A DNA stretch of 64,000 nt from Nitrospiraceae bacterium (GCA_003599275.1 QZJG01000074.1:5352-69351), one strand, 5' to 3'. Shown: positions 909 through 11,921, numbered from the stretch's first letter. The notes: generated by a model from the letters alone, not told the origin. Numbers and translations are program-made.

Positions 909-1595
909 ATGGTCAAAAAAATCCTTATAGTCGATGATGAGGCCCTGATACTCAGCGGCCTGTCAAAGTGCCTCGCAAACAGCAACACCGTAATAAAAAC
1001 CGTTGCAAACGGAGCTGATGCGCTCAAGGAAATCAGCTTATGTCCTTACGACCTCTGCTTTTTAGACGTCCGTCTTCCGGACACCAACGGTCTTTACCTC
1101 ATGAAAAAGATAAAGAGATTCTCTTCTGAAACCAAGGTCGTTATCATGACCGCCCATCCTTTAAGTGATGATCTGAGGAAGGAGGTTGAGGACAACGCCT
1201 TCAATTTTATCAGCAAGCCCTTTGACCTTTCACATATAAAGGCGATCGCCGAGCTGGCTTTGGGTAAAGACGGAAGCCGCAATGAGAGCCGTGCGTCCTG
1301 CGATCAGGAATTCAAAGAAGGAAGGCTGTTTTTGAGAAAACCGCTGGAAAAGACCATTGATTATTTTGCCGGCGTATTTGAAGGCGGGGAGCTGAAGCTG
1401 TTGACGCTCACGGGAAGTGTCATCGACATAAGCGACGGCGGGATCGGACTCAAAACCGGTTACAACCTCAAACCCGGTTATATGATAAGGTTCTCGGGTG
1501 AGACAATCCCTTACGAGGTGGGGGTCGTCAAATGGAGCATGCCTGCGGGGGACAATTCTTTCAGGGCGGGAATCGAGTTCATGAGAAGGGCTTAA
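909..1595 (+). CDS. response-regulator receiver domain fused to a PilZ (c-di-GMP binding) domain
   Basis: The N-terminus is REC-like (KILIVDDE...DLCFLDVRLPD...KP). The C-terminus carries the PilZ signatures RLFLR (RxxxR) and DISDGG (DxSxxG). Confidence 0.85.
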   Translation: MVKKILIVDDEALILSGLSKCLANSNTVIKTVANGADALKEISLCPYDLCFLDVRLPDTNGLYLMKKIKRFSSETKVVIMTAHPLSDDLRKEVEDNAFNFISKPFDLSHIKAIAELALGKDGSRNESRASCDQEFKEGRLFLRKPLEKTIDYFAGVFEGGELKLLTLTGSVIDISDGGIGLKTGYNLKPGYMIRFSGETIPYEVGVVKWSMPAGDNSFRAGIEFMRRA

Positions 1596-1680
1596 AAAAC
1601 AGGGTGTAGGGAATTAGGGTATAGGGGGTAGTTTGCGGCAGTTCCTGCTCCCTATACCCTAATTCCCTACACCCTGTTTT
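1596..1680. terminator. 31-bp perfect-stem hairpin built from GGGTRTA heptamers; bidirectional terminator between convergent genes
   Basis: AAAACAGGGTGTAGGGAATTAGGGTATAGGG (1596-1626) is the exact reverse complement of 1650-1680. The loop is 23 nt, with an A-run on the left and a T-run on the right. It fills the gap between the stop at 1595 and the stop at 1679-1681. Confidence 0.8.
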
Positions 1681-1900
1681 ATGATAATGCCTTAATCAGC
1701 ATCAGAATAATTCCAATATTCATAGTTACAAGGACGCCCATCATCCATTTAATAAGTTTTGTATCACTTTCAATTCTTGCAAGACGTTCTTCCTGTCCCA
1801 ACTCTGCCATAACTTTGGCCGCTTCCTTTGCCTTTTCATCAGGCGCCCCTGCCGCCCTTAACGCCTCATAAACTTCAGCAATCATTTTACTCATTATCAT
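1679..1900 (-). CDS. small coiled-coil protein with a C-terminal TM helix (DUF1640-like)
   Basis: The ORF reads ...EVYEALRAAGAPDEKAKEAAKVMAEL...IKWMMGVLVTMNIGIILMLI. The start is probably the ATG at 1894, 7 nt after GGGGG. Confidence 0.55.
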   Translation of the reverse strand: MIMSKMIAEVYEALRAAGAPDEKAKEAAKVMAELGQEERLARIESDTKLIKWMMGVLVTMNIGIILMLIKALS

Positions 1901-1980
1901 GCCCCCGCTTTTTTTAATATTGTTACGCCCTACTGTTTAACCGTAATACAAAAAAAAATTATTGTCAATTTATAAAGGCA

Positions 1981-2083
1981 GCGTATAGCGGGTAGGGAAA
2001 AACGACAAAAAATAGCATGTCGGGAGCTGCTTTTTTGTTTTTATACACGCTACCCCCTATACCCTAATTTCCTACACCCTGTT
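1981..2083. repeat. degenerate heptamer-repeat arms (G-rich left, C-rich right) flanking a short hairpin plus T-run
   Basis: The left arm is GCGTATAGCGGGTAGGG (1981-1997). The right arm is ACACGCTACCCCCTATACCCTAATTTCCTACACCCTG (2045-2081). The right arm is nearly identical to the right arm of the 1596-1680 hairpin. Confidence 0.5.
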
Positions 2084-3460
2084 TTATTCTATTCCAAACT
2101 TCTTTATCTGATATCTGAATGAATCATAACTTATCCGGAGGAGCTTTGCGGCAAGGGACCTGTTATTCCCCGTCCTCTGGAGCGCCTGCATTATCAGGTC
2201 TTTCTCCAATTCATCGAGCGAGACGCCTTCATCGGGGAGGACGCACCTGTGACTTGACTGGCATGTGGTCCTTACCGTCTCCAGCGGCAATTGAGAAGGG
2301 TCAATTAATTCGGAATTTTCCAGCACGACAAGCCGTTCAATGACGTTTTTCAGTTCCCTGACGTTGCCCGGCCACGTATAAGAAAGGAGTATCTTTTCAG
2401 CCTCGGGGGAAAAGCTTGCGGGATTGTTCTTTTTGTATTCCGCCTTGAAGTGTGAAAGAAAATGCCGCGCAAGAAAGAGTATGTCCTCTTTCCTCTCCCT
2501 CAGTGGAAGTATGTGCAGGGAAAAGGTGTTCAGCCTGTAAAACAGGTCCAGCCTGAAGTCCCCTTTTGCAACAGCGTCCTGAAGGTCCCTGTTTGTGGTG
2601 GCTATGACGGTAACTTCTATCGGTATCTCTTTTTTCCCGCCGATGCGTCTTATGGTCCTTTCTTCAAGCACCCTCAATAGCTTGCTCTGCAGGCCCATCT
2701 TCATGTCTCCTATTTCATCAAGGAGAATGGAGCCGCTGTTTGCCAGCTCAAAGAGTCCTTTCTTTTCAGACTTTGCGTCCGTAAAGGCGCCCTTTTCATA
2801 GCCGAAGAGCTCGCTCTCGAGGAGTGTTTCCGGGAGGGCGGTACAGTTGATGGTTATGAAAGGCGCGCATCTCAGGGTACTGTCGCTGTACAGCAGCGAA
2901 TGAACAAAGCGCGCCATAAGCTCCTTGCCGGTCCCGCTTTCACCCGTGATAAGCACGGTCGAGACGCCGGCGAGGGCGATCTTTTCGGCCTTTTCCCTCA
3001 GCTCCCTTATGACCCTGGATTCCCCGACGAGGTCCTTCTTGAAGGTGTCCAGGTATACCTTCCTCAGGTAATCGACCTCATGCTTGAGACTCCCCTTTTC
3101 GAGGAGCTTCTCTATGACAATTTTTACCTCGTCGATATTGAGGGGCTTTGTAAGATAATCCGTGGCGCCGAGCTTCATGGCCTTTACCGCGGTCTCTGCA
3201 GAGTCGTCCGCCGTGAGCATGACAACCTCTGCGTCTATCTCCCTCTCCCTGATCTCCTGGAGGATATCCAGACCGTTGGAATCAGGGATGTTTACATCCA
3301 GCATTATTACGTCGGGAGACCAGGAGCGTATTTTCTCGATGACCTCGTCGGCTTCGGTCACCGCCATCACCTCATAGCCCTGTTTTTTCAGGGACCTTGA
3401 AATCATCGAGATGATAAGCTCCTCGTCGTCCAGAAGAAAAATTTTACCTTTGCTTTTCAT
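2084..3460 (-). CDS. sigma-54-dependent response regulator (NtrC/AtoC family: REC + AAA+ + HTH)
   Basis: REC N-terminus, Walker A GESGTGKE, a GAFTDA (GAFTGA-type) sigma-54 contact loop, and a C-terminal Fis-type HTH. Confidence 0.95.
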   Translation of the reverse strand: MKSKGKIFLLDDEELIISMISRSLKKQGYEVMAVTEADEVIEKIRSWSPDVIMLDVNIPDSNGLDILQEIREREIDAEVVMLTADDSAETAVKAMKLGATDYLTKPLNIDEVKIVIEKLLEKGSLKHEVDYLRKVYLDTFKKDLVGESRVIRELREKAEKIALAGVSTVLITGESGTGKELMARFVHSLLYSDSTLRCAPFITINCTALPETLLESELFGYEKGAFTDAKSEKKGLFELANSGSILLDEIGDMKMGLQSKLLRVLEERTIRRIGGKKEIPIEVTVIATTNRDLQDAVAKGDFRLDLFYRLNTFSLHILPLRERKEDILFLARHFLSHFKAEYKKNNPASFSPEAEKILLSYTWPGNVRELKNVIERLVVLENSELIDPSQLPLETVRTTCQSSHRCVLPDEGVSLDELEKDLIMQALQRTGNNRSLAAKLLRISYDSFRYQIKKFGIE

Positions 3461-3470
3461 ATTTAAAATC

Positions 3471-3540
3471 AGGTGTAAGGCAGAGGTGGTAGCAGGTAGT
3501 TTTTTGTTCCCTACACCCTACTCCCTCTGCCCTACACCCT
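3471..3540. repeat. imperfect heptamer-based hairpin between the kinase and regulator genes
   Basis: AGGTGTAAGGCAGAGGTGGTAGCAGGTAG (3471-3499) faces CCCTACACCCTACTCCCTCTGCCCTACACCCT (3509-3540). About 24 of 29 positions are complementary. Confidence 0.5.
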
Positions 3541-3544
3541 TTCC

Positions 3545-4978
3545 CTAACTTTCCTTTCTGACCGGCAAAACGATCGTGAATGTTGTCCCCTTGCCCTGTT
3601 CGCTTTCTATGCTTATGCCCCCCCCGTGCTCTTCTACAATGCGCCTTGTAATGGCCAGCCCCATTCCCGTGCCTTTGGCCTTGGTAGTGAAAAAAGGCTG
3701 AAAGATCTTCTTCACCAGCTCCCTGTTGATCCCTTTACCGGTGTCGCCTATCTCTATCCTGATCGCTTTTCCATCGGGGTTGCGTGACGTATTGATGGTC
3801 AGGGTACCTCCGCCGGACATGGCGTCAACCGCATTCAGCAGAAGATTAAGAAACACCTGCTGCAACTGCATCTGGTCGGCCATTATGACCGGCAGCCTGC
3901 TGTCGAAATTTTTAACTACCGCGATCGCCTTTAAGCCGTTGCCGGATGAAGCCGACGGGATTTTGGTTGAAAACGTCATACATATGTCGATGATGTTGTT
4001 GACATTCGTTGGCGTAAGCTGGGGGACAGGCGGTTTTGCAAAATTAAGGAGCCCCTTTAACAGGGCGTCTATCCGTCTTACCTCGCCGATGACCTGCGTC
4101 AAGACAGTCCTGTCTTCCGCTGAAAGGCTGGAATCCTCCGAGAGGACTTCCATCGACACTTTGATGCCTGCCAGCGGGTTTTTGATTTCATGAGCAAGCC
4201 CGGTCGCTATCTCGCCGCACACCCTCAACTGCTCCGTCCTCTGCATGTTGAGTATCTGCTGTTTCAGAGAGCTTGCCATCTCATTAAAGGAAGCCGCGAC
4301 CTCGCCGAACTCGTCTTTCAGCGAAGCGACCCTGTAATCCAGGTCGCCTGCCTTCAATCTCCGCGTCGCATCGAGGATCGTATTGAGCGGCTCGGTGATC
4401 GCCTTTATAAAGATCAGGGACAGGACCGTCGCAAGGATGGGGCCGAGGGCCAGCACGATAAAAAGCGTAGACTTTGTGTCCGCTATCTTTTGCAGCGCCG
4501 ATCTGGTTTTTTCATCAAGCCTGCTGCTCGTCATTGTTATCATGCTGTTGACTTCCGCTATAAGGTCTTCACCGATCCTGAAGGCTTTTTCCGCTTTTGC
4601 GTGCAAAGCGCTGAAGTTGTCGCCCACGATCAGGATCCCGGTCACGGATTCCTTGTATTCATGTATATGACTTCTCAAGTCAACAAGCTTCTTCATCACT
4701 ATTTCATTGTGGTGGCAGTTAAAGCAGGTGTCCGCCACTTTCGCCATGTTGTTTATGGTCGTCAATATGGTTTTATTGTCCCGGTCTCTTGATTTGAGGT
4801 CTGTCTGTATCCTTGCAATATGTATCAGCAGATGTTCCCGCAGTATTTCAATCTGATGGAGTTTAATAAGGTTGTCAAGCCTGGATGTGGTGGTCTCGAT
4901 GGTGAAGATTACATAGACAGTCGCCAAAAAGAAGATCAGGGTAAAGAGCGCCAGTCCTGTGATGATTTTTTTCTTCAT
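3545..4978 (-). CDS. sensor histidine kinase (2 TM, periplasmic domain with CxxCH, HAMP, HisKA, HATPase)
   Basis: TM1 covers residues 7-27. CFNCH sits at residues 85-89 (nt 4712-4726). TM2 is at about residues 172-195, followed by a HAMP domain. The H-box is HEIKNPL and the ATPase carries a G-box (GTGMGL). Confidence 0.9.
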   Translation of the reverse strand: MKKKIITGLALFTLIFFLATVYVIFTIETTTSRLDNLIKLHQIEILREHLLIHIARIQTDLKSRDRDNKTILTTINNMAKVADTCFNCHHNEIVMKKLVDLRSHIHEYKESVTGILIVGDNFSALHAKAEKAFRIGEDLIAEVNSMITMTSSRLDEKTRSALQKIADTKSTLFIVLALGPILATVLSLIFIKAITEPLNTILDATRRLKAGDLDYRVASLKDEFGEVAASFNEMASSLKQQILNMQRTEQLRVCGEIATGLAHEIKNPLAGIKVSMEVLSEDSSLSAEDRTVLTQVIGEVRRIDALLKGLLNFAKPPVPQLTPTNVNNIIDICMTFSTKIPSASSGNGLKAIAVVKNFDSRLPVIMADQMQLQQVFLNLLLNAVDAMSGGGTLTINTSRNPDGKAIRIEIGDTGKGINRELVKKIFQPFFTTKAKGTGMGLAITRRIVEEHGGGISIESEQGKGTTFTIVLPVRKES

Positions 4979-5063
4979 CTATTATAAAGAGTTCTTCAGA
5001 AAGAATAGGATTACCGTTATAATAATAATCTCAGGCCCATTTCTGCAAGGGAAAAAAACGCGG

Positions 5064-5079
5064 GGCAAATTAAATGCCT
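5064..5079. promoter_or_regulatory. sigma-54-type -24/-12 element in the divergent intergenic region; orientation ambiguous
   Basis: The minus strand reads AGGCATttaatTTGCC. The plus strand reads GGGCAAattaaATGCC. Both keep GG-N10-GC because the core is palindromic, and the minus strand fits the consensus slightly better. Confidence 0.35.
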
Positions 5080-5113
5080 GATACAAAACAGGACGCAAGA
5101 CGAATGTTGTATA

Positions 5114-5122
5114 TGCTAAAAT
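5114..5122 (+). promoter_or_regulatory. extended -10 (TGcTAAAAT) sigma-70 promoter candidate for the 5158 operon
   Basis: TGCTAAAAT lies 36 nt upstream of the ATG at 5158. No good -35 element is present. Confidence 0.3.
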
Positions 5123-5157
5123 ATCAGGGTCTGAGGTTTGGAGCCAGGGGGTAATTG

Positions 5158-5727
5158 ATGTTGAACGTGATAAACAGGCGTTTCAGGACCGGCTTTATTG
5201 CCCTGATATCGTTGACGCTGATATCGGCGTTATTAATAAGCGCGATCGCTTTTTATTCTTATTCCGACAAAGAGCTGGGCGGGACTTACGGACAGAAAAT
5301 CGATACTATTTCCGAATTCAGGACGACCCTTGTAAAAGACTCCCTGCTGATATTCATACCGCCCGCCGTTATGGCCGTAATCTTTGTAATAACAGCCATT
5401 GTTCTGTATACCCACAGGATCGTCGGACCTCTGGTAAGGATAAAGGCCGTTACCCGGCAAATATCCGAAGGCGATTTCAACATACTTGTCAAGTTAAGAG
5501 AAAAAGACGCCATAATGCCCCTTGCGGATGCGCTGAATAAATTGTCCTCGGGATACAGAGAAAGATTTTCCATACTGGGCAAGGCCCTTGATGAAATGTC
5601 CAGGGACGCAGCGGAGATGCGGCAGGCCGTTGAAAGAGGAGATATGGAAGCAGCCGAAGCCAAAAGAGAAGAGTTAGGGAAAAAGGCCGGAGAGATAAAA
5701 ACCATGCTTTCCGGGATCAGGTTATGA
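5158..5727 (+). CDS. two-TM membrane protein with a HAMP domain and coiled-coil tail (no output domain)
   Basis: The ATG at 5158 lies 7 nt after GGGGG. Two hydrophobic helices are followed by a HAMP-like stretch, GPLVRIKAVTRQISEGDFNILVKLREKD. The stop overlaps the next start (ATGA). Confidence 0.7.
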   Translation: MLNVINRRFRTGFIALISLTLISALLISAIAFYSYSDKELGGTYGQKIDTISEFRTTLVKDSLLIFIPPAVMAVIFVITAIVLYTHRIVGPLVRIKAVTRQISEGDFNILVKLREKDAIMPLADALNKLSSGYRERFSILGKALDEMSRDAAEMRQAVERGDMEAAEAKREELGKKAGEIKTMLSGIRL

Positions 5728-6515
5728 AAAAAAGATTAATTGTCCCTCTGCTTCTTGTCATGGCCTCCATTATTATCGTGTACGCCGTGTTGGACAATCC
5801 GCACGACTTCTCCATGGAAGACTGCCAGCTCTGCCATCTGAATTACGAACAGGACCCTAAAAGACTGGCCATGCCCGTATCGGACCTCTGCAAAAGATGT
5901 CATGAGCAGATAAATGCGAAATCATCGCACCCTGTAAATATTTATCCGTCAAAGGCGGCAGTCCCTCCGGACCTGCCGTTGAGAAACGGGATGATAGCTT
6001 GCAGCACATGCCACGATATTCACAAAGAGAATTCCAATGTCTTCGGAGAAAAGACCTTCTTCCTGAGAAGACCGTATACGGGAAGGAGTTTTTGTCTCTC
6101 GTGTCATACTCAGGGGATAGATTTGACGAAGCATTCGGACACAATCGACACCGCCCACATGGGGAGCAGATTCAAAGTTACAGATCAGTCCGAGCCGCTC
6201 GATTCCATTTCCAAAGAATGCATCAGTTGCCACGGCGGCGTACTCGGCAAGAATGCGGTGTTCGGACTCGGCAGCGGAGTATGGACCCACGATGATCCAA
6301 CCCATTCTCATCCGATAGGCGTCGATTACGAAGAGAGCAGGACGGAAAGGAAGGACGCAAAATTAAAACCCATGTCCATGATCGACAAAAGGATAATATT
6401 TTTTGACGGGAAGATAGGGTGCGGGTCGTGTCATAACGTGTATTCTGAGTCTCAAATGTCCCTCGTGATGAGCAACAAGGGCAGCAGTCTCTGTCTTGCG
6501 TGTCATGAATTATAA
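5724..6515 (+). CDS. heptahaem c-type cytochrome with N-terminal signal/anchor
   Basis: Seven CxxCH motifs: CQLCH, CKRCH, CSTCH, CLSCH, CISCH, CGSCH and CLACH. The N-terminus is hydrophobic. Confidence 0.9.
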   Translation: MKKRLIVPLLLVMASIIIVYAVLDNPHDFSMEDCQLCHLNYEQDPKRLAMPVSDLCKRCHEQINAKSSHPVNIYPSKAAVPPDLPLRNGMIACSTCHDIHKENSNVFGEKTFFLRRPYTGRSFCLSCHTQGIDLTKHSDTIDTAHMGSRFKVTDQSEPLDSISKECISCHGGVLGKNAVFGLGSGVWTHDDPTHSHPIGVDYEESRTERKDAKLKPMSMIDKRIIFFDGKIGCGSCHNVYSESQMSLVMSNKGSSLCLACHEL

Positions 6516-6518
6516 AAG

Positions 6519-6583
6519 ACAGGGGGTAGTGTGTAGGGGGTAGTTTTTTCCGCTCCCTACCCCCTATGCCCTACACCCTAATT
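6519..6583. repeat. imperfect heptamer-based hairpin after the cytochrome gene
   Basis: ACAGGGGGTAGTGTGTAGGGGGTAG (6519-6543) faces CTCCCTACCCCCTATGCCCTACACCCTAATT (6553-6583), with a T-run in the loop. Confidence 0.5.
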
Positions 6584-6596
6584 TACGGGAGGAGTT

Positions 6597-7190
6597 ATGG
6601 AGCATAAGAGGAAACGGTACATCACAGATAAGGTTTATCAGTGGAGGCTGGCGTTACGGATCATATCCATCTGTTCTGTTTACCTGCTTTTGAACCTTGT
6701 ATTGTTCAATTATCTGTCCTACAGAAAAATCGAGTTTCTGAGATGGAAAATGAACCTGCCGTTTGAGACTACGGGTGAAATAGTCGAGCCTTACCTCATA
6801 TCCTCTACAGCGATAACAATGTCCCTTGCCGTGGCCACGCTTGTCATATACATAATCTTCATCCTCAATAAAACGTCAGGGCCGGTGTACAGACTGAAAG
6901 CGGACATGGAAAAAGCGGCAGACGGCGATCTTTCGACAAACATTTACCTGCGCAGCGGCGATGATTTCAAGGAAACGGCAAAAGACTGCAACAACATGGT
7001 ATTGTCACTGAGAGGCAGGTTTGCCCGTATAAAAGAAGGCTTCTCCTCAGCGGAAAAGTCCCTGGAAAAAATAGAGTATGTAAAAGACAGGCCGGAGATT
7101 GCCGCCAAAGAATGCAAAGCCCTTGCAGATACAATAGAGGCGTTAAAGAAAGAAATTTCATCCGTAAAGGTGGAAAATGCTGCAGGCTGA
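6597..7190 (+). CDS. second two-TM HAMP/coiled-coil membrane protein (paralogue of 5158..5727)
   Basis: The architecture matches 5158..5727 and the HAMP segment is similar (GPVYRLKADMEKAADGDLSTNIYLRSGDD). It overlaps the GspE-like start by 14 nt. Confidence 0.7.
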   Translation: MEHKRKRYITDKVYQWRLALRIISICSVYLLLNLVLFNYLSYRKIEFLRWKMNLPFETTGEIVEPYLISSTAITMSLAVATLVIYIIFILNKTSGPVYRLKADMEKAADGDLSTNIYLRSGDDFKETAKDCNNMVLSLRGRFARIKEGFSSAEKSLEKIEYVKDRPEIAAKECKALADTIEALKKEISSVKVENAAG

Positions 7191-8724
7191 CAAAAGGACC
7201 CCTGAAAAAAATCGCCGTCATCTGAAGGCCGAAGACCTGCCGAACGTCCCTCTTGTGATGAATGAGATATCGTCCCGTTTCATACGTGAAAACATGATCG
7301 TGCCCATAGATTTCAGGAACAATATTTTAAAGGTGGTAATGGCAAATCCCGGGGACAAAGCGACCATTGACGCCGTCAGGGTGGCGGCAGCGGCAGACGT
7401 CGAGGTATATTCAACCGGCCCGGACATCCTGGAAGAGTACATATCAAAGTTCTACGGGCAGGAGCCGCAGAATATAAACAAAATCATTGAGGACATCGGC
7501 GGAGAAGGTTTTGAATTCCTGAAAGACGATGAAGAAGACGTAGGACACCTCAAGGACCTCGCGTCAGAGGCCCCTATAATAAAACTCGTCAACATGCTCA
7601 TATCGAGGTCTGTCGAAAGCCGGGCCAGCGACATCCACATAGAGCCTTTTGAAGACGAGCTGAAGATCAGATACCGCATAGACGGCGTTTTATATGAAGT
7701 CGAATCGATACCCAAAAAACTGCAGGCGGCCATTATCTCGAGGATAAAGATAATGGCAAAGCTCAACATCGCTGAAAGGAGGCTGCCGCAGGACGGACGC
7801 ATCAAGCTCAAGGTCGCCGAGAGGGAGATAGACATGAGGGTCTCCACAATACCGGTGCTTTACGGTGAAAGCGTGGTAATGAGAATACTCAGCAAAGAAG
7901 GCATTGTCGTAGACCTGGACCTCCTCGGGTTTTCATCGCAGATGCTGTCCGCATTCAATCAGCTCATCAAAAAACCGAACGGCATCATACTGGTCACCGG
8001 GCCTACCGGCAGCGGAAAGACGACGACCCTTTACGGCGCCCTTGATAAAATAAATTCCCCGGACAGGAAGATCATCACCGTCGAAGACCCGATAGAGTAT
8101 CAGCTCAATGGAATAAACCAGATACAGATGAAACCGCAGATAGGCTTAAACTTTGCAACAACCCTCAGACACGTAGTCCGGCAGGACCCTGATATAATAA
8201 TGATCGGCGAAATCAGGGACCTCGAGACCGCCGAGATCGCCATACAGTCCGCCCTGACCGGACACCTTGTGTTTTCGACATTGCATACAAACGACGCCCC
8301 AAGCGCGATAACGAGACTTATCGACATGGGGCTTGAGAACTTTCTTCTTTCCTCCACCATCAGGGGAATACTGGCCCAGAGGCTTGTAAGGGTCATCTGC
8401 CCCGTGTGCAAAGAAATCGACACGTCAACGGCGGACCGGGAAGAGCTCGGGGTTTTGGGCATCGGCAGTGACGCGCCCCTTTATAAAGGCAGGGGCTGTG
8501 AGAAATGCACCCATACCGGTTATTACGGCAGGTCCGGGATATTCGAGCTGCTCGTCGTGACGGATGAAATACGAAGACTTGTCCTGAAGGACGCCGACTC
8601 CGGACAGATAAGGGAAGCGGCCAGAAAAGACGGCATGAAGACCCTGATGGAAGACGGCGCTGAAAAAATACGGTCGGGGGTCACAACCCTGAGCGAAATT
8701 TTGAAAGTAACGCAGGAGGCTTAA
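7177..8724 (+). CDS. gspE: type II secretion / type IV pilus assembly ATPase (GspE/PilB family)
   Basis: A T2SSE N-terminal domain, Walker A GPTGSGKTT, Asp and His boxes, and a C-terminal CPVC...CEKC zinc motif. The RBS is AAGGTGGA. Confidence 0.95.
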   Translation: MLQADKRTPEKNRRHLKAEDLPNVPLVMNEISSRFIRENMIVPIDFRNNILKVVMANPGDKATIDAVRVAAAADVEVYSTGPDILEEYISKFYGQEPQNINKIIEDIGGEGFEFLKDDEEDVGHLKDLASEAPIIKLVNMLISRSVESRASDIHIEPFEDELKIRYRIDGVLYEVESIPKKLQAAIISRIKIMAKLNIAERRLPQDGRIKLKVAEREIDMRVSTIPVLYGESVVMRILSKEGIVVDLDLLGFSSQMLSAFNQLIKKPNGIILVTGPTGSGKTTTLYGALDKINSPDRKIITVEDPIEYQLNGINQIQMKPQIGLNFATTLRHVVRQDPDIIMIGEIRDLETAEIAIQSALTGHLVFSTLHTNDAPSAITRLIDMGLENFLLSSTIRGILAQRLVRVICPVCKEIDTSTADREELGVLGIGSDAPLYKGRGCEKCTHTGYYGRSGIFELLVVTDEIRRLVLKDADSGQIREAARKDGMKTLMEDGAEKIRSGVTTLSEILKVTQEA

Positions 8725-8725
8725 A

Positions 8726-9922
8726 TTGGCTATCTTCTCGTACAAGGCCGCCTCCGCCGACGGGACTGTCGTAGAGGGTGTTCTGGAGGCTGCGGACGAG
8801 AGGGCAGCGGTCGAGAGGATCAAAAATTCCGGGGTCATCCTCCTGAAGATCGCCGCGCAGGGGGAAAAGACCGGGAAGAAATTACTGTTCAAAAAAACAT
8901 CAGGCGATGCGCTCCTTACGTTCACAACAGAGCTTTCCATCCTTTTGGCCGCAGGACTTCCCCTGGACAGGTCGCTGAATATACTCTCCGGAATTTCTGA
9001 AAGCGCAGAGATGAAAGGCGTGATCAGGACCATCCTGAAATCCATCCGGGAAGGCAGCTCGTTTTCCGAGGCCCTGCACAAGCATCCGAAAATATTCCCG
9101 AGGATTTATATAAACATAATAAAAGCCGGTGAGTCGGGCGGCGTGCTCAATGTGGTGCTGGACAAGCTGAATGAATTTCTTGAAACCACAAGAGAACTGA
9201 AAGAACATGTCATCTCTTCAATGATCTACCCTGTGATACTCCTTGCTACAGGCGGCATATCGATACTTATCCTCCTGACCTTTATGCTCCCGAAATTCAG
9301 CAAAATATTTTCGGAGCTCGGCGCATCGCTCCCCCTTTCCACACAAATGCTTCTCGCGTTCAGCAATGCAGTCAAGGCGTATTGGTGGTTCTTTCTGCTG
9401 TCCGCGGTCATAGGGGTAATGGCCTTCAGGAAATACATAGCCACCGAAAACGGCAGATACCGGTTTGATTCTTTTAAATTAAAGGTAATGGGAGACGTAA
9501 TAAGAAAACTCGAGACCGCGAGGTTCTGCAGGACGTTAGGCACCCTGCTGAAAAGCGGCGTGCCCATGCTCCAGGCGCTGAACAATGCAAAAGACGTTGT
9601 AAACAACCAGGCCATAGCCACAGCCATTGCTTCCGTGTCCAAAGGAGTCAAGGAAGGCAAAGGCATTACGGCTCCGTTGTCCGAAGCCGGGGTCCTGCCG
9701 CCGCTGGCCCTCTCGATGATACAGGTAGGCGAAGAAACGGGCCAGCTTGACAATATGCTGATCACGGTCGCAGTTACCTATGAAAAGAACCTGAAGGTCG
9801 CGATAAAGAGATTTATCAGCCTGCTTGAGCCTGCCATGATACTCGGAATGGGCCTGATAATAGGCTTTATAGTCCTCTCAATGCTCATGGGAATATTCAC
9901 CATATCGGAAGTACCGTTTTAG
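8726..9922 (+). CDS. gspF: type II secretion / type IV pilus inner-membrane platform protein (GspF/PilC family)
   Basis: TTG start 8 nt after GGAGG. The protein has the duplicated T2SSF domain architecture with three TM segments. The N-terminus is typical (MAIFSYKAASADG). Confidence 0.95.
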   Translation: MAIFSYKAASADGTVVEGVLEAADERAAVERIKNSGVILLKIAAQGEKTGKKLLFKKTSGDALLTFTTELSILLAAGLPLDRSLNILSGISESAEMKGVIRTILKSIREGSSFSEALHKHPKIFPRIYINIIKAGESGGVLNVVLDKLNEFLETTRELKEHVISSMIYPVILLATGGISILILLTFMLPKFSKIFSELGASLPLSTQMLLAFSNAVKAYWWFFLLSAVIGVMAFRKYIATENGRYRFDSFKLKVMGDVIRKLETARFCRTLGTLLKSGVPMLQALNNAKDVVNNQAIATAIASVSKGVKEGKGITAPLSEAGVLPPLALSMIQVGEETGQLDNMLITVAVTYEKNLKVAIKRFISLLEPAMILGMGLIIGFIVLSMLMGIFTISEVPF

Positions 9923-9926
9923 GAAA

Positions 9927-10073
9927 GCGTGTAGCGTATAGCGTGTAGCGTGTAGCGTGTATAAAAAAATTATGCGGAATGCAAGATTCATCCCGAATAT
10001 GTCGAGACCAATTTCAAATTTTAAATTTAAAAAAGACTTACCCTCTACACGCTACACGCTATACGCTACACGC
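9927..10073. repeat. 29-bp perfect-stem hairpin of GCGTRTA heptamers enclosing the start region of the first pseudopilin gene
   Basis: GCGTGTAGCGTATAGCGTGTAGCGTGTAG (9927-9955) is the exact reverse complement of 10045-10073. The 89-nt A/T-rich loop contains all candidate start codons. More CTACACG/CTACCCG heptamers follow up to 10140. Confidence 0.8.
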
Positions 10074-10574
10074 TTTCCCCTGCCCTCTACACGCTACACG
10101 CTCTTCCCTACCCGCTACCCGCTACACGCTACACGCTCTTCCCTGCGAAAGCAGGGCTTCACTCTGCTCGAGCTCATAATCGTAATGCTCATCGCCTCAC
10201 TCGTACTCGGACTTTCCACCGTTGTTTTTACCAATATGCTGCCGTCGGCAAGACTCGACGCAACGGTCAGGAAAATATCGGCCACCGTAAGACACGCCAG
10301 ATCGCTTGCAAAAGTCAACGGCGAAACGGAGAACGTCATAATAGACCTCGATGCAAGGAGGTTCGGGATGGAAGGCAGAGATTACGAAGCCATCCCCTCC
10401 GACATAAATATTAAAGTGCTGGACCCGCTGTCCGGAGAAACGAGCAGCGGAAAGTATACCCTGACTGTTAAGGCAACGGGCGGTATCGAAGGTGGGACCA
10501 TAGTAGTCTGGAGCAAAAAAAAGACCGTCCATATAGATATTGACCCGATTGTCGGAGCAGTGGTGGTTAAGTAA
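9957..10574 (+). CDS. GspH-like minor pseudopilin (prepilin-type G|FTLLE cleavage/methylation site); start uncertain
   Basis: RKQG|FTLLELIIVMLIASLVLGL is followed by a GspH-like body (ATVRKISATVRHARSLA). The only in-frame starts are GTG 9957, ATG 9972 and ATG 9999. Confidence 0.75.
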   Translation: MYKKIMRNARFIPNMSRPISNFKFKKDLPSTRYTLYATRFPLPSTRYTLFPTRYPLHATRSSLRKQGFTLLELIIVMLIASLVLGLSTVVFTNMLPSARLDATVRKISATVRHARSLAKVNGETENVIIDLDARRFGMEGRDYEAIPSDINIKVLDPLSGETSSGKYTLTVKATGGIEGGTIVVWSKKKTVHIDIDPIVGAVVVK

Positions 10575-10590
10575 GCAGCAAGGACAAGCA

Positions 10591-11079
10591 ATGCTGAATT
10601 TAACAACTTCAATAATTTCAAATCTCATATTTCAAATTTTAAATTTTAAATTTCAAAAAGACTTACCCCCTACTCCCTACTCTCTTGCCCCTTGCCCCTC
10701 CCGCAGGGCCGGCTTCACTCTGCTTGAAATCCTCGTGGCCCTTTCAATAACGGGCATTGCGCTTATAGTCGTGCTGCAGCTTTTTTCAGCCAATTTAAAG
10801 AATATCTCCGTCTCCGAAGACTATGTCTTCGCAGTCTCGAAAGCAGAGGCCCGGATGAGAGAGCTGCTGGAAGGTCAAAATCTCCAGGAGGGTTCATGGC
10901 GCGAGACCACGGCTGACGGATACAGGGTGGACATTGCCATAAAGAATTCTCAAAAGGAGAGGACGCAAAATCTGAAAGTGTCTCTCATGGAGATCGACCT
11001 GACAATACATTGGACAAACGCGGCAAAAGAGAGGTCGTTCACATTAAAATCAGCGAAGCTGGTAAAGAAAAGGGTGTAA
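10591..11079 (+). CDS. prepilin-type minor pseudopilin (GspI-like, tentative)
   Basis: The ATG at 10591 lies 6 nt after AAGGA. The cleavage site is SRRAG|FTLLEILVALSITGIALIVV. Confidence 0.7.
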   Translation: MLNLTTSIISNLIFQILNFKFQKDLPPTPYSLAPCPSRRAGFTLLEILVALSITGIALIVVLQLFSANLKNISVSEDYVFAVSKAEARMRELLEGQNLQEGSWRETTADGYRVDIAIKNSQKERTQNLKVSLMEIDLTIHWTNAAKERSFTLKSAKLVKKRV

Positions 11080-11089
11080 GGCAGAGACA

Positions 11090-11752
11090 ATGAACAATTC
11101 AAGATTCAAAATTCAAGATTCAAAATCTGATAACATTACTAATCTCAAATCCTCCTGCCCCCTACACCCTGCATCAAAAGGTTTCACCCTGCTTGAATTG
11201 ATGATCTCCATCACTATCCTCGGGGTCATTGTCCTGATCGTAAGCAGCGCCATGAAGGTGAGTTTCCGCTCTGTGAGCGCCGGGGAGAAAAAAATGGAGT
11301 CCCTCGAAAGGGTCCGGGCTTCCTTGAAAATTGTGGACTCGCAAATCCAGTCTTCAATCCCGCTCACTTACCTGACAGGCAGCGACCTTAAATACTATTT
11401 TTCCGGGCATAAGAGGTCTCTCAGGCTTTCAACAAATTATTCCCTGTGGAATGAAAACAGGGGATATGTCGTAGTTGCCTACAGAATTGTATCAGACGAT
11501 CACGGGAAAAAGTCTTTATATGCGTCTGAAAACATTGTAGGCGTCAAAGGTGAAAAAGAGGTGAAACTCCTCGACGGTCTTGACGAGATTTATTTTGAAT
11601 ACTTCTATACGGACCCGACGAAAACAGAAGGGGCATGGATAGAGGAATGGAAGTTTTTCAATTTTCCTGAAAAGATAAGATTAAACATAGTTGACGGGAC
11701 AAAGCGTTTTACCCTCGTCATGCCGTTGAGGGTAAGAAGTCTCGGCTTATAA
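11090..11752 (+). CDS. prepilin-type minor pseudopilin (GspJ-like, tentative)
   Basis: The only in-frame start is ATG 11090. The cleavage site is ASKG|FTLLELMISITILGVIVLIV. Confidence 0.7.
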   Translation: MNNSRFKIQDSKSDNITNLKSSCPLHPASKGFTLLELMISITILGVIVLIVSSAMKVSFRSVSAGEKKMESLERVRASLKIVDSQIQSSIPLTYLTGSDLKYYFSGHKRSLRLSTNYSLWNENRGYVVVAYRIVSDDHGKKSLYASENIVGVKGEKEVKLLDGLDEIYFEYFYTDPTKTEGAWIEEWKFFNFPEKIRLNIVDGTKRFTLVMPLRVRSLGL

Positions 11753-11804: not shown

Positions 11805-11834
11805 GTCATTCCCGCATATCTTTAGCGGGAATCC
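11805..11834. repeat. REP-like hairpin GTCATTCCCGC-N9-GCGGGAATCC
   Basis: Read directly. The same motif family recurs at 23147-23200, 24835-24858, 42713-42846 and 60155-60226. Confidence 0.65.
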
Positions 11835-11921
11835 ACCCTTCGCTCAGGATAACAGACGACCACCGAAGGACTCAGCGTAACCTGTACTCAGGACAGGCTC
11901 TGCCGAACCATGTATGCCCGA

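Follow-up and report, generated by a model that had tools for sequence, protein, structure and literature searches.

REP/BIME elements of E. coli and Pseudomonas are short extragenic palindromes located at the ends of genes in operons, and some of them stabilise the upstream mRNA or terminate transcription. The CTCTT units of the Neisseria opa genes represent another type of short repeat, namely coding repeats that cause phase variation. Heptamers in hmw1A of H. influenzae are also phase-variable coding repeats (PMC12721329). Dispersed heptamers with a preference for four units are known as GGGAATC in Xanthomonas, GGGGAYT in Nostoc and the STRR of heterocystous cyanobacteria (Rehm et al. 2015, PMC4692102). 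In Coxiella burnetii, the 23S rRNA intervening sequence (IVS) contains tandem GACAGAT units in 2-3 strain-variable copies just upstream of an ORF, and RNase III cuts the IVS at the first heptamer repeat (PMC4990558). Finally, the Rickettsia palindromic elements (RPEs; Ogata et al. 2000, 2002), as summarised in PMC10969869, are units of ~150 bp in ten families of fixed sequence that are inserted in frame into unrelated housekeeping genes.

Here, we analysed a 64-kb stretch of DNA (the window) from a Nitrospiraceae bacterium of the Thermodesulfovibrionia. Searches of the whole window for CSCTAYNCSCTA revealed 18 matches versus 0.15 expected (100 shuffles). All of them fell within positions 1615-10679, and the remaining 53 kb contained none, in agreement with the initial annotation, which had confined the motif to the first ~11 kb. 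TRF detected period-7 arrays at 3509-3540, 6521-6580, 9926-9961, 10045-10137 and 10664-10699 and heptamers rich in A and T at 10614-10657 and 11097-11123; the arrays mix different, imperfect units (72-93% matches). The density of seven sites in 9.6 kb compares with a genome mean of one per ~90 kb. At all seven sites, the G-rich arm starts 0-6 nt past the upstream stop codon or spans it. The unit type (GGG versus GCG) varies among sites while complementarity is kept inside each site, as had also been described. The sites and the associated genes are as follows:

1596..1680, no strand assigned: site 1, heptamer-built hairpin in the spacer between convergent genes
1981..2083, minus strand: site 2, degenerate two-armed copy (z -2.0)
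3471..3540, minus strand: site 3, hairpin (-43.2 kcal/mol, z -6.6)
6519..6583, plus strand: site 4, hairpin (z -2.6)
7177-8724, plus strand: gspE-like ATPase (T2SSE, 2.5e-143)
8726-9922, plus strand: gspF-like platform protein (T2SSF, 1.5e-60)
9926..9961, plus strand: G-rich arm of site 5, (AGCGTGT)5, 5.1 copies, 93% matches
9972..10154, plus strand: loop ATG of site 5 and predicted translated leader of pseudopilin 1
10591..10710, plus strand: site 6, pseudopilin 2 leader with in-frame heptamers
11065..11085, plus strand: G-rich arm of site 7 (z -2.3 for the site 7 hairpin)
11090..11179, plus strand: loop ATG of site 7, AT-rich heptamers (11096-11126) and C-rich arm (11150-11172)

All seven sites had initially been described as intergenic hairpins. 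This description suits sites 1, 3 and 5 as far as folding is concerned, but the degenerate sites 2, 4 and 7 fold little better than their shuffled versions (z -2.0 to -2.6), and site 6 has neither a significant hairpin (z -0.4) nor a convincing G-rich arm. The two stems reported as perfect are indeed so, although their lengths of 31 and 29 bp were slight underestimates: site 1 folds with 36 consecutive pairs (-68.2 kcal/mol, z -13.4) and site 5 (9926-10075) with 34 (-77.9 kcal/mol, z -9.0), a mirrored variant unit being included in the stem of the latter.

Site 1 separates the convergent genes of a response regulator (909-1595, plus strand) and a 73-aa ORF (1679-1900, minus strand), and its G-rich arm begins 6 nt past the TAA stop. 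Because U-runs follow the stem on both strands (4 U on the plus and 6 U on the minus strand), its sequence looks like that of a bidirectional terminator between convergent genes. A simple terminator scan did not return this site, the loop and stem of which exceed the limits of the scan. No U-run follows the stem at the other window sites. Site 2 is situated just downstream of the stop of a sigma-54 response regulator gene (2084-3460, minus strand), and its outer arm is almost a copy of the site 1 arm (97% identity over 36 nt). Site 3 fills the spacer between this gene and the histidine kinase gene (3545-4978, minus strand), while site 4, located between a multihaem cytochrome gene (5724-6515) and ORF 6597-7190, is followed by a strong Shine-Dalgarno sequence.

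Sites 5-7 belong to a secretion/pilus operon, the context of which is given by the gspE-like and gspF-like genes (7177..9922). At site 5, the gspF stop (TAG, 9920-9922) is followed 3 nt further on by the G-rich arm, and the ~13 units of the C-rich arrays (10040-10140) form three 35-nt blocks, of which the first pairs perfectly with this arm. At site 6, AT-rich heptamers (10614-10657) precede a solitary C-rich array (10660-10699), and both are in frame. Pseudopilin 2 ends inside the G-rich arm of site 7, which covers its final codons and TAA stop as well as the Shine-Dalgarno-like AAGGCAGAG of pseudopilin 3, and the segment 11090..11179 reads as the leader of pseudopilin 3. The C-rich arms of these three sites are not intergenic, contrary to the earlier description, since they are found inside ORFs 9972-10574, 10591-11079 and 11090-11752, in frame with N_methyl prepilin motifs at residues 59-81, 37-62 and 29-51 (pseudopilins 1, 2 and 3, respectively). 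The leader of pseudopilin 1, whose start codon lacks a Shine-Dalgarno sequence, reads MRNARF...STRYTLYATRF...RKQG, followed by FTLLE. We count the leaders as translated because the nearest possible start codon (ATG, GTG or TTG) lies at least 53, 41 and 31 codons before the cleavage glycine in the three pseudopilins; the C-rich arms of sites 5-7 are thus predicted to be translated as extra-long cleavable leaders. Forced leaders of at least 20 aa were found in 54 of the 228 pseudopilin genes of related loci, and a prepilin peptidase gene is present in the genome.

A key question is whether the family is specific to this locus, as the initial annotation had suggested. The genome-wide count that it proposed gave ~35 sites on 20 contigs versus ~1 expected by chance, a large excess that extends beyond this locus. 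Strict family arrays numbered 34 versus 0-1 in third-order Markov simulations, and reversed sequence contained 3 arrays versus 28 in the real sequence. By the criterion that the initial annotation had itself set, the locus-specific reading fails because of these ~35 sites on 20 contigs and the presence of the family in related genomes, while the view of the elements as a REP/STRR-like family of tandem 7-nt units holds genome-wide. At a TRF score of at least 40, 165 rows had period 7, 91 had period 14 and 16 had period 8, with none of period 6. Inverted pairs of arrays numbered 27 for period 7 versus 0 for period 6, and the modal array length was four units. By these sequence comparisons, the window sites are best described as one sequence family of a genome-wide class, with dozens of heptamer families in the genome. 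The earlier idea nevertheless contains a kernel of truth, as copies of a given family tend to lie close together: two adjacent heptamer sites are of the same family ~2 times as often as random pairs, and other clusters of the window's family occur at C42:360-8900 and C68:10225-13342. Paired arms of the family are present on contigs C9 and C42. No Rfam family matches the heptamer elements.

The similarity to the class of Rehm et al. 2015 (PMC4692102) is considerable: both consist of 7-nt tandem units of about four copies distributed genome-wide far above chance, both show frequent convergent pairs able to form stem-loops, and both adjoin stop codons and occupy the spacers of co-directional ORFs. 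In contrast to that class, many unrelated unit sequences coexist here, most of them without G-tracts, the units that occupy fixed slots change from one congener to another, the large versions include an IVP gene (see below), and the host lineage is Nitrospirota. Moreover, the class of Rehm et al. is under-represented in coding regions, whereas ~14 of the ~35 family sites in this genome are predicted to be translated in frame.

Indeed, approximately 13 of the ~35 sites occupy co-directional and 2 convergent junctions; ~7 are in frame mid-gene (in CobB, HisC, Nnr, TPR-glycosyltransferases and a 4Fe-4S protein), and another ~7 are in frame before an export signal or prepilin motif, so that co-directional junctions and translated positions each account for roughly 40%. 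Copies are also found at nuo, flagellar and tRNA junctions and in core operons elsewhere in the genome. For a copy in the middle of a conserved enzyme gene, translation is unavoidable. The G-rich strand contains TAG in all three frames, whereas no frame of the C-rich strand is closed, and this strand can be read on into the downstream gene. With REP/BIME, the elements share the form of short palindromic repeats at gene ends within operons, but REP/BIME are strictly extragenic, whereas in-frame copies exist here in CobB, HisC, Nnr and pilin leaders, the units are tandem, about half of the arrays are single-armed and translation is possible. REP/BIME are also associated with RAYT transposases, and the suggested search for a RAYT/TnpA-REP gene found only one Y1/RAYT-type gene in this 88.6% complete genome (Y1_Tnp + DnaA_C, on C74), which is not flanked by heptamer arrays, and the heptamer elements have no linked transposase. 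RPEs resemble the present family as small palindromic repeats read through as extra peptide segments, but they have no 7-nt periodicity, no placement at stop/start junctions and no known cargo gene; the family arrays described here are 14-100 nt of 7-nt units with no long shared consensus.

A cargo gene is found in the larger versions. All testable genes of this genome encoding IVP (23S-rRNA-intervening-sequence protein, Avd-like) lie between inverted heptamer arrays (4/4, flank inverted-repeat scores of 31-58); the gene at C42:3874-4350 and three others are enclosed by terminal inverted repeats. Among the IVP genes of five relatives, 15 of 21 reached a score of at least 29, compared with 0 of 400 random windows. 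Two IVP arm pairs (L128 and L132) belong to the window's own family, and the seven window sites have no IVP gene or other ORF cargo. As in the 23S rRNA IVS, the terminal inverted-repeat stem of the large copies encloses a four-helix-bundle IVP/S23p ORF; however, the IVS resides in an rRNA helix, whereas every copy examined in this genome lies within a protein-coding gene or in the spacer between two such genes or two tRNA genes.

Another important question is whether the sites are regulatory RNA hairpins selected in the operon for termination or mRNA segment stability, as the initial annotation had first proposed, or for translational coupling, which we consider possible but unlikely. The high stability of sites 1, 3 and 5, the G-rich arm abutting the upstream stop at every window site, and the site 7 stem that includes both this stop and the downstream Shine-Dalgarno sequence are consistent with such a role. 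The closest relative, L012 (GspF 86% identical), provides evidence in both directions. Sites 4 and 5 are occupied there too, the former by a G-rich array only (one arm) and the latter by different units, and pseudopilin leaders are repeatedly occupied in relatives; however, sites 3, 6 and 7 are missing from L012, where adjoining genes touch or overlap and short leaders (MSARVQG, MKLQKQG) are encoded. The site 3 position is a 15-nt spacer, the pseudopilin 2 leader at the site 6 position is the short MSARVQG, and at site 7, the pseudopilin 2 and 3 genes overlap as ATGA. The occurrence of the family within enzymes and at the junctions of nuo, flagellar and tRNA genes, the lack of a partner arm within 700 nt for about half of the family arrays, the unfolded site 6 and the restriction of terminator-type U-runs to site 1 also argue against operon-specific regulation.

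Phase-variation switches, in which slippage of a single 7-nt unit between the ATG and the mature pseudopilin would shift the frame, are improbable. As in opa and hmw1A, the unit length is not divisible by 3, and the arrays overlap or precede the region of surface-protein genes that encodes the signal peptide and are flanked by the start codon and the mature part; the long C-rich array of site 5 (13 units) and the heptamer-dependent switching documented in H. influenzae (PMC12721329) would also fit. Nevertheless, most arrays are short (3-5 units) and imperfect, and essential cytoplasmic enzymes, for which switching would be detrimental, contain the same arrays. The HisC slot, although empty in one genome, holds exactly 4 units across the genus with a unit sequence that differs by genome, and all four pilin arrays in this genome and the L012 copy are in frame, with no off-frame allele seen.

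G-quadruplex-forming regulatory repeats, as proposed for the Xanthomonas and Nostoc heptamers, are even harder to reconcile with the data. Arms of the GGGTGTA type conform to the G3N4 motif if they have at least 4 units, as at sites 1, 3 and 4, and the four-unit preference is that of Rehm et al. 2015 (PMC4692102), but the GCG-type G-rich arm of site 5, (AGCGTGT)5, has no G-tract, most other families do not fit the four-G-tract motif either, the four-unit mode is equally strong without any G3/C3 run (70/169 versus 31/62), and two-armed sites would give a competing 34-36-bp duplex. The suggestion that the repeats mark a horizontally acquired module is the least credible: the limitation of the family to the first 11 kb of the window and its patchiness (11 of 40 related genomes) would suit it, but the GC content of the first 12 kb (0.468-0.488 versus 0.476 for the genome) and its skews are like those of the genome and of the remainder of the window, conservation of the gene cluster and of its order extends throughout Thermodesulfovibrionales and beyond (gspE-gspF-pseudopilin in ~80 related genomes), the family also resides in core operons elsewhere, and neither integration scars nor a gspE/gspF phylogeny in conflict with the species tree was seen at the locus.

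Taken as a whole, the sequences suggest that these are probably fast-turning-over, largely selfish elements tolerated at junctions and in dispensable peptides, with RNA hairpins as a possibly co-opted by-product. The window sites would represent one family (units GGGTRTA, GGGAGTA and GCGTGTA) of a tandem-heptamer class whose basic element, an array of about four 7-nt units, occurs solo or in inverted pairs that give hairpins, and whose larger versions would carry the four-helix-bundle IVP gene in the loop. Because the G-rich strand has stop codons and the C-rich strand is open, the elements would be tolerated at operon junctions, in cleaved leaders and in permissive enzyme loops. They appear to be gained, lost and rewritten between close relatives and to spread preferentially to nearby junctions, and for this reason, we read them as mainly selfish or neutral rather than as an operon device. 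The long perfect stems of sites 1, 3 and 5 should form hairpins in transcripts; a hairpin at the convergent junction would act as a terminator, and those inside operons would be substrates of RNase III, the gene of which (rnc) is present in the genome, or stabilisers of 3' ends. The stem of site 7, hiding the Shine-Dalgarno sequence and spanning the upstream stop, would couple pseudopilin 3 translationally to pseudopilin 2. Against this reading, selection for pairing, and not a recent inverted duplication, could have produced the 34-36-bp perfect stems with mirrored variants, and the recurrent occupation of pseudopilin leaders may indicate a function rather than mere tolerance.

The heptamer arrays, tandem 7-nt units of the GGGTRTA, GGGAGTA or GCGTGTA type in a G-rich arm with a complementary C-rich arm, lie in a genome of 3.05 Mb (74 contigs, 47.6% GC), of which the window covers contig C9:5352-69351. 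Bare coordinates are window positions. The genes of the first 12 kb are as follows.

909-1595, + strand: response regulator
1679-1900, - strand: 73-aa ORF
2084-3460, - strand: sigma-54-type response regulator
3545-4978, - strand: histidine kinase, partner of the sigma-54-type response regulator
within the first 12 kb: HAMP-domain protein
5724-6515: multihaem cytochrome
6597-7190: unknown ORF
7177-8724: gspE-like gene
8726-9922: gspF-like gene
9972-10574, 10591-11079 and 11090-11752, + strand: three pseudopilin genes (pseudopilins 1, 2 and 3) with an N_methyl motif

The repeats exist and, as the initial annotation had stated, are restricted to the first 11 kb of the window: CSCTAYNCSCTA gave 18 matches against 0.15 expected, all within 1615-10679, and the period-7 arrays were recovered by TRF. 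Their predicted folding differs strongly from site to site.

Predicted folding of the seven heptamer sites
Site 1, 1596-1680: dG -68.2 kcal/mol, z -13.4, 36 consecutive pairs
Site 2, 1981-2083: z about -2.0
Site 3, 3471-3540: dG -43.2 kcal/mol, z -6.6
Site 4, 6519-6583: z about -2.6
Site 5, 9926-10154, folded as 9926-10075: dG -77.9 kcal/mol, z -9.0, 34 consecutive pairs including a mirrored variant unit
Site 6, 10591-10710: z -0.4, no folding above chance
Site 7, 11065-11179: z about -2.3

Rfam returned only sub-threshold matches at site 1, to miRNA-precursor models, which amounts to "a long hairpin". The C-rich arm of site 5 (10039-10144) is triplicated in ~35-nt blocks of five units each, giving the single G-rich arm three alternative partners. 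Other repeat families are also present. The hairpin at 600-735 has arms of CACAGAGA and TCTCTGTG 8-mers and a loop of ~70 nt that contains a second small hairpin, and a copy of another palindromic repeat (gtcattcccgc...gcgggaatcc) lies at 11805-11845, downstream of pseudopilin 3; translated copies of this palindrome elsewhere in the genome read HSRESGNPE, for example in a reverse transcriptase on contig C72. An exact-protein look-up of GspF for other assemblies of the strain and an exact 34-mer scan of metagenome contigs gave no match.

A locus-specific structured RNA had been proposed for these sites, which the genome-wide motif count does not support, since the window family totals about 35 sites on 20 contigs, with further clusters at C42:360-8900 and C68:10225-13342. 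Strict arrays number 34 in the genome against 0-1 in third-order Markov simulations, and a flexible array definition yielded 28 against 3 in a reversed-sequence control. Strict definitions were kept because a loose two-unit motif with flexible spacing matched the reversed-sequence control (132 matches) more often than the real genome (61). The family is one of many built from dozens of different heptamer units: at a TRF score of at least 40, period 7 accounts for 165 rows and period 14 for 91, while periods 6 and 8 account for 0 and 16, respectively. Unit relatedness was measured by direct pair distances; single-linkage clustering at one mismatch chained nearly all families into one cluster and was abandoned. 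The local clustering of same-family copies is real, with the unit family shared by neighbouring sites in 31% of cases versus 16% for random pairs, and sites 1 and 2 have almost identical outer arms. Among relatives, the window unit type is present in 11 of 40; one congener has 69 unit-type matches, and five of the ten other searched congeners have none. A stop-codon rule for the units was also discarded: a stop in at least one strand is enriched (73% vs 52% expected), not clean across families. The suggested foreign origin of the module finds no sign in composition, and the gene cluster is kept in about 80 related genomes. The check for a RAYT link revealed one Y1_Tnp gene in the genome, with flanks free of repeats.

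Read in the transcript orientation in which the G-rich arm comes first, this arm starts 0-6 nt past the upstream stop codon, or contains the stop, at all seven window sites.

Positions of the window family in the genome (approximate tally of roughly 35 sites)
Co-directional gene junctions, about 13: nuoJ-nuoK, fliE-fliF, after flgG
Convergent junctions, 2
Mid-gene and in frame, about 7: CobB, HisC, Nnr, a 4Fe-4S protein, a BPL_N-domain protein, two TPR-glycosyltransferase paralogues
Ahead of an export signal and in frame, about 7: four pilin-like genes, two NHL lipoproteins, a cytochrome
Between two tRNA genes, C27:40290-40375: a two-armed copy

In copies within ORFs, the C-rich strand is always the sense strand. 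About half of the family's arrays stand alone, with no complementary array in the 700 nt around them, and thus the array, not the hairpin, is the elementary unit. At C42:358-965 (locus L001), a G-rich arm lies just 5' of the GTG start of a 372-aa 4Fe-4S protein and its C-rich partner 533 nt downstream, mid-gene. The N-terminal ferredoxin half is bracketed by the two arms and may represent cargo of an element that has become joined, in frame, to the domain downstream.

Contrary to what had been stated, the seven sites are not all intergenic: the C-rich arms of sites 5-7 fall within the pseudopilin ORFs downstream of gspF, where an ATG in the loop of the hairpin precedes them and the G|FTLLE cleavage motif follows in the same frame. 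The nearest ATG, GTG or TTG lies 53, 41 and 31 codons from this motif in pseudopilins 1, 2 and 3, respectively, and a prepilin peptidase is encoded near window position 50.6 kb. The openness of the C-rich leaders is partly automatic, because no reading frame of CCCTACA-type repeats contains a stop codon (in the complement, TGTAGGG, each frame has TAG). The AT-rich loop segments are likewise open in exactly the frame needed. In related gspEF clusters (loci L012-L091), 54 of 228 pseudopilin genes (24%) have a forced leader of at least 20 aa, with every possible start at least 20 codons away from the cleavage glycine, and many of these long leaders are made of other repeat families, e.g., KCKMQN/FAICI and NPPIPPF..KGG. 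AT-rich heptamer arrays (AATTTCA, ATTCAAG) occupy hairpin loops at 10614-10657 and 11096-11126 and at 7290-7320 of L012, the closest relative's locus, and are translated into NFKFQK-type leader segments. The loop-plus-leader cassette of pseudopilin 2 was found again on pseudopilin 1 of this relative, which suggests exchange between the 5' ends of paralogous pilins. CTG was considered as an alternative start, being present just 5' of the pseudopilin 1 leader and of one lipoprotein signal peptide on C42; this CTG belongs to the CCCTG that ends the element and is out of frame at pseudopilin 3.

Comparison with L012, whose GspF is 86% identical to that of the window, revealed rapid turnover. Site 3 is absent there, leaving a 15-nt spacer. 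Site 6 is missing too, with the stop running straight into the start (TAAATG) and MSARVQG as the leader, and so is site 7, where the genes overlap as ATGA and the leader is MKLQKQG. Site 4 is represented by the G-rich array only, and site 5 by an element with other units (GGTTGTA, GGGAGTA) whose leader is similar to that of the window's pseudopilin 2. In HisC of nine congeners (loci L111-L119), the same codon slot holds four heptamer units, and the unit depends on the genome.

Content of the HisC slot
This genome, C19:50813-50833: CTACTCC
G006: CTTATCC
G008 and G005, decayed in two others: CCCGTCA
Two genomes: nested 26-nt palindrome
One genome: empty

With the position kept and the unit genome-dependent, positions can therefore persist while their content is rewritten in concert, and the HisC pattern looks like concerted rewriting at a fixed position. 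Phase variation by unit number is disfavoured by imperfect units, by copies in essential enzymes and by the fixed four units of HisC. The G-quadruplex idea put forward for heptamers by Rehm et al. (PMC4692102) fares poorly, as it leaves the GCG-type arms unexplained and the four-unit mode is equally strong in families without a G-tract.

The elements are scattered through the genome, lie close against gene junctions, are compatible with the reading frame and are not stable between relatives, and the mid-gene copies must be translated. They would persist where they are harmless, in exact stop/start gaps, in leaders that are cleaved away and in permissive loops. Two-armed copies probably fold in RNA. 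Site 1 has U-runs on both strands and would act as a terminator for the two convergent genes. Stems of 34-36 bp have the length that RNase III accepts, and such stems could divide the transcripts of operons into segments or stabilise them; the genome has an RNase III gene. The stem of site 7 takes in the stop codon of pilin 2 together with the Shine-Dalgarno sequence of pilin 3 and would thereby couple the translation of the two genes.

Another association concerns genes for the 23S-rRNA-intervening-sequence protein, a four-helix bundle (IVP, PF05635). Five clear genes are present, and all four with both flanks on the contig lie between inverted tandem-repeat arms, with a different unit in each.

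C42:3874-4350 (L001): IVP gene with GGGTGTA-type arms
C5:71037, C2:102609 and C43:28164: other IVP genes
C51:4: IVP gene at a contig end, one flank visible

In a Pfam scan of one copy, the IVP at C42:3935-4309 also matched the bAvd-like PF22296. Flank inverted-repeat scores in the genome are 31-58, whereas 400 random windows all stayed below 29. A score of at least 29 was also obtained for 15 of 21 IVP genes in five relatives, with arms that include AGCGTATAGCGTGTAGCGTGTA in G035 and GGGTGTAG-type in G006. A literature search on IVP and heptamers found a single paper, on Coxiella, in which the stem of the 23S rRNA intervening sequence encloses an S23p ORF preceded by a variable number of GACAGAT heptamers, with RNase III cutting at the first repeat (PMC4990558); the IVP genes here are likewise wrapped between inverted heptamer arms. 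Contig C72 carries, at 991-2673 (L123), a reverse transcriptase of the diversity-generating-retroelement type that ends in a MutS_I domain; its two neighbouring proteins have YYDFYVRCVRGGQ-type, variable-region-like terminal tails.

It is conceivable, if rather unlikely, that the arrays are non-autonomous footprints of an undescribed mobile or self-rewriting element whose autonomous form would be an Avd-like IVP gene in inverted heptamer arms. This form would be the entity known until now only as a 23S rRNA intervening sequence. By an IVP-dependent process, stop/start junctions and fixed coding slots would receive about four units at once, either as new copies or in place of older ones, and a reverse transcriptase or RNase III-processed hairpin RNA might take part. 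The 7-nt period would make insertions non-polar, one strand stopping three frames and the other being open; as the open strand is so in all three frames, a change in unit number could re-tune the frame.

In the literature, the closest parallels are heptameric simple-sequence repeats, both those of Xanthomonas and Nostoc and STRR (PMC4692102), the IVP-bearing rRNA intervening sequences (PMC4990558) and, as regards insertion in frame, the palindromic elements of Rickettsia (PMC10969869). In none of these three systems do junction geometry, translated leaders, rewriting of slots and an IVP cargo occur together. As a practical consequence, gene callers will truncate the window pseudopilins or assign them odd N-termini, and PTPYTLH-type repeats will appear in enzymes. 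The over-representation of heptameric repeats in bacterial genomes has been noted for about 20 years without explanation (cited in PMC4692102). The present data offer handles on such repeats: a fixed arrangement at junctions, in which the arm with stops in three frames lies at the upstream stop and the arm open in three frames is read into the next gene; their translation as prepilin leaders of 31-53 residues and as enzyme loops; a conserved coding slot in HisC with a genome-specific unit and four units retained; and a strong tie of heptamer arrays to the orphan IVP/Avd-like family and hence to rRNA intervening sequences.
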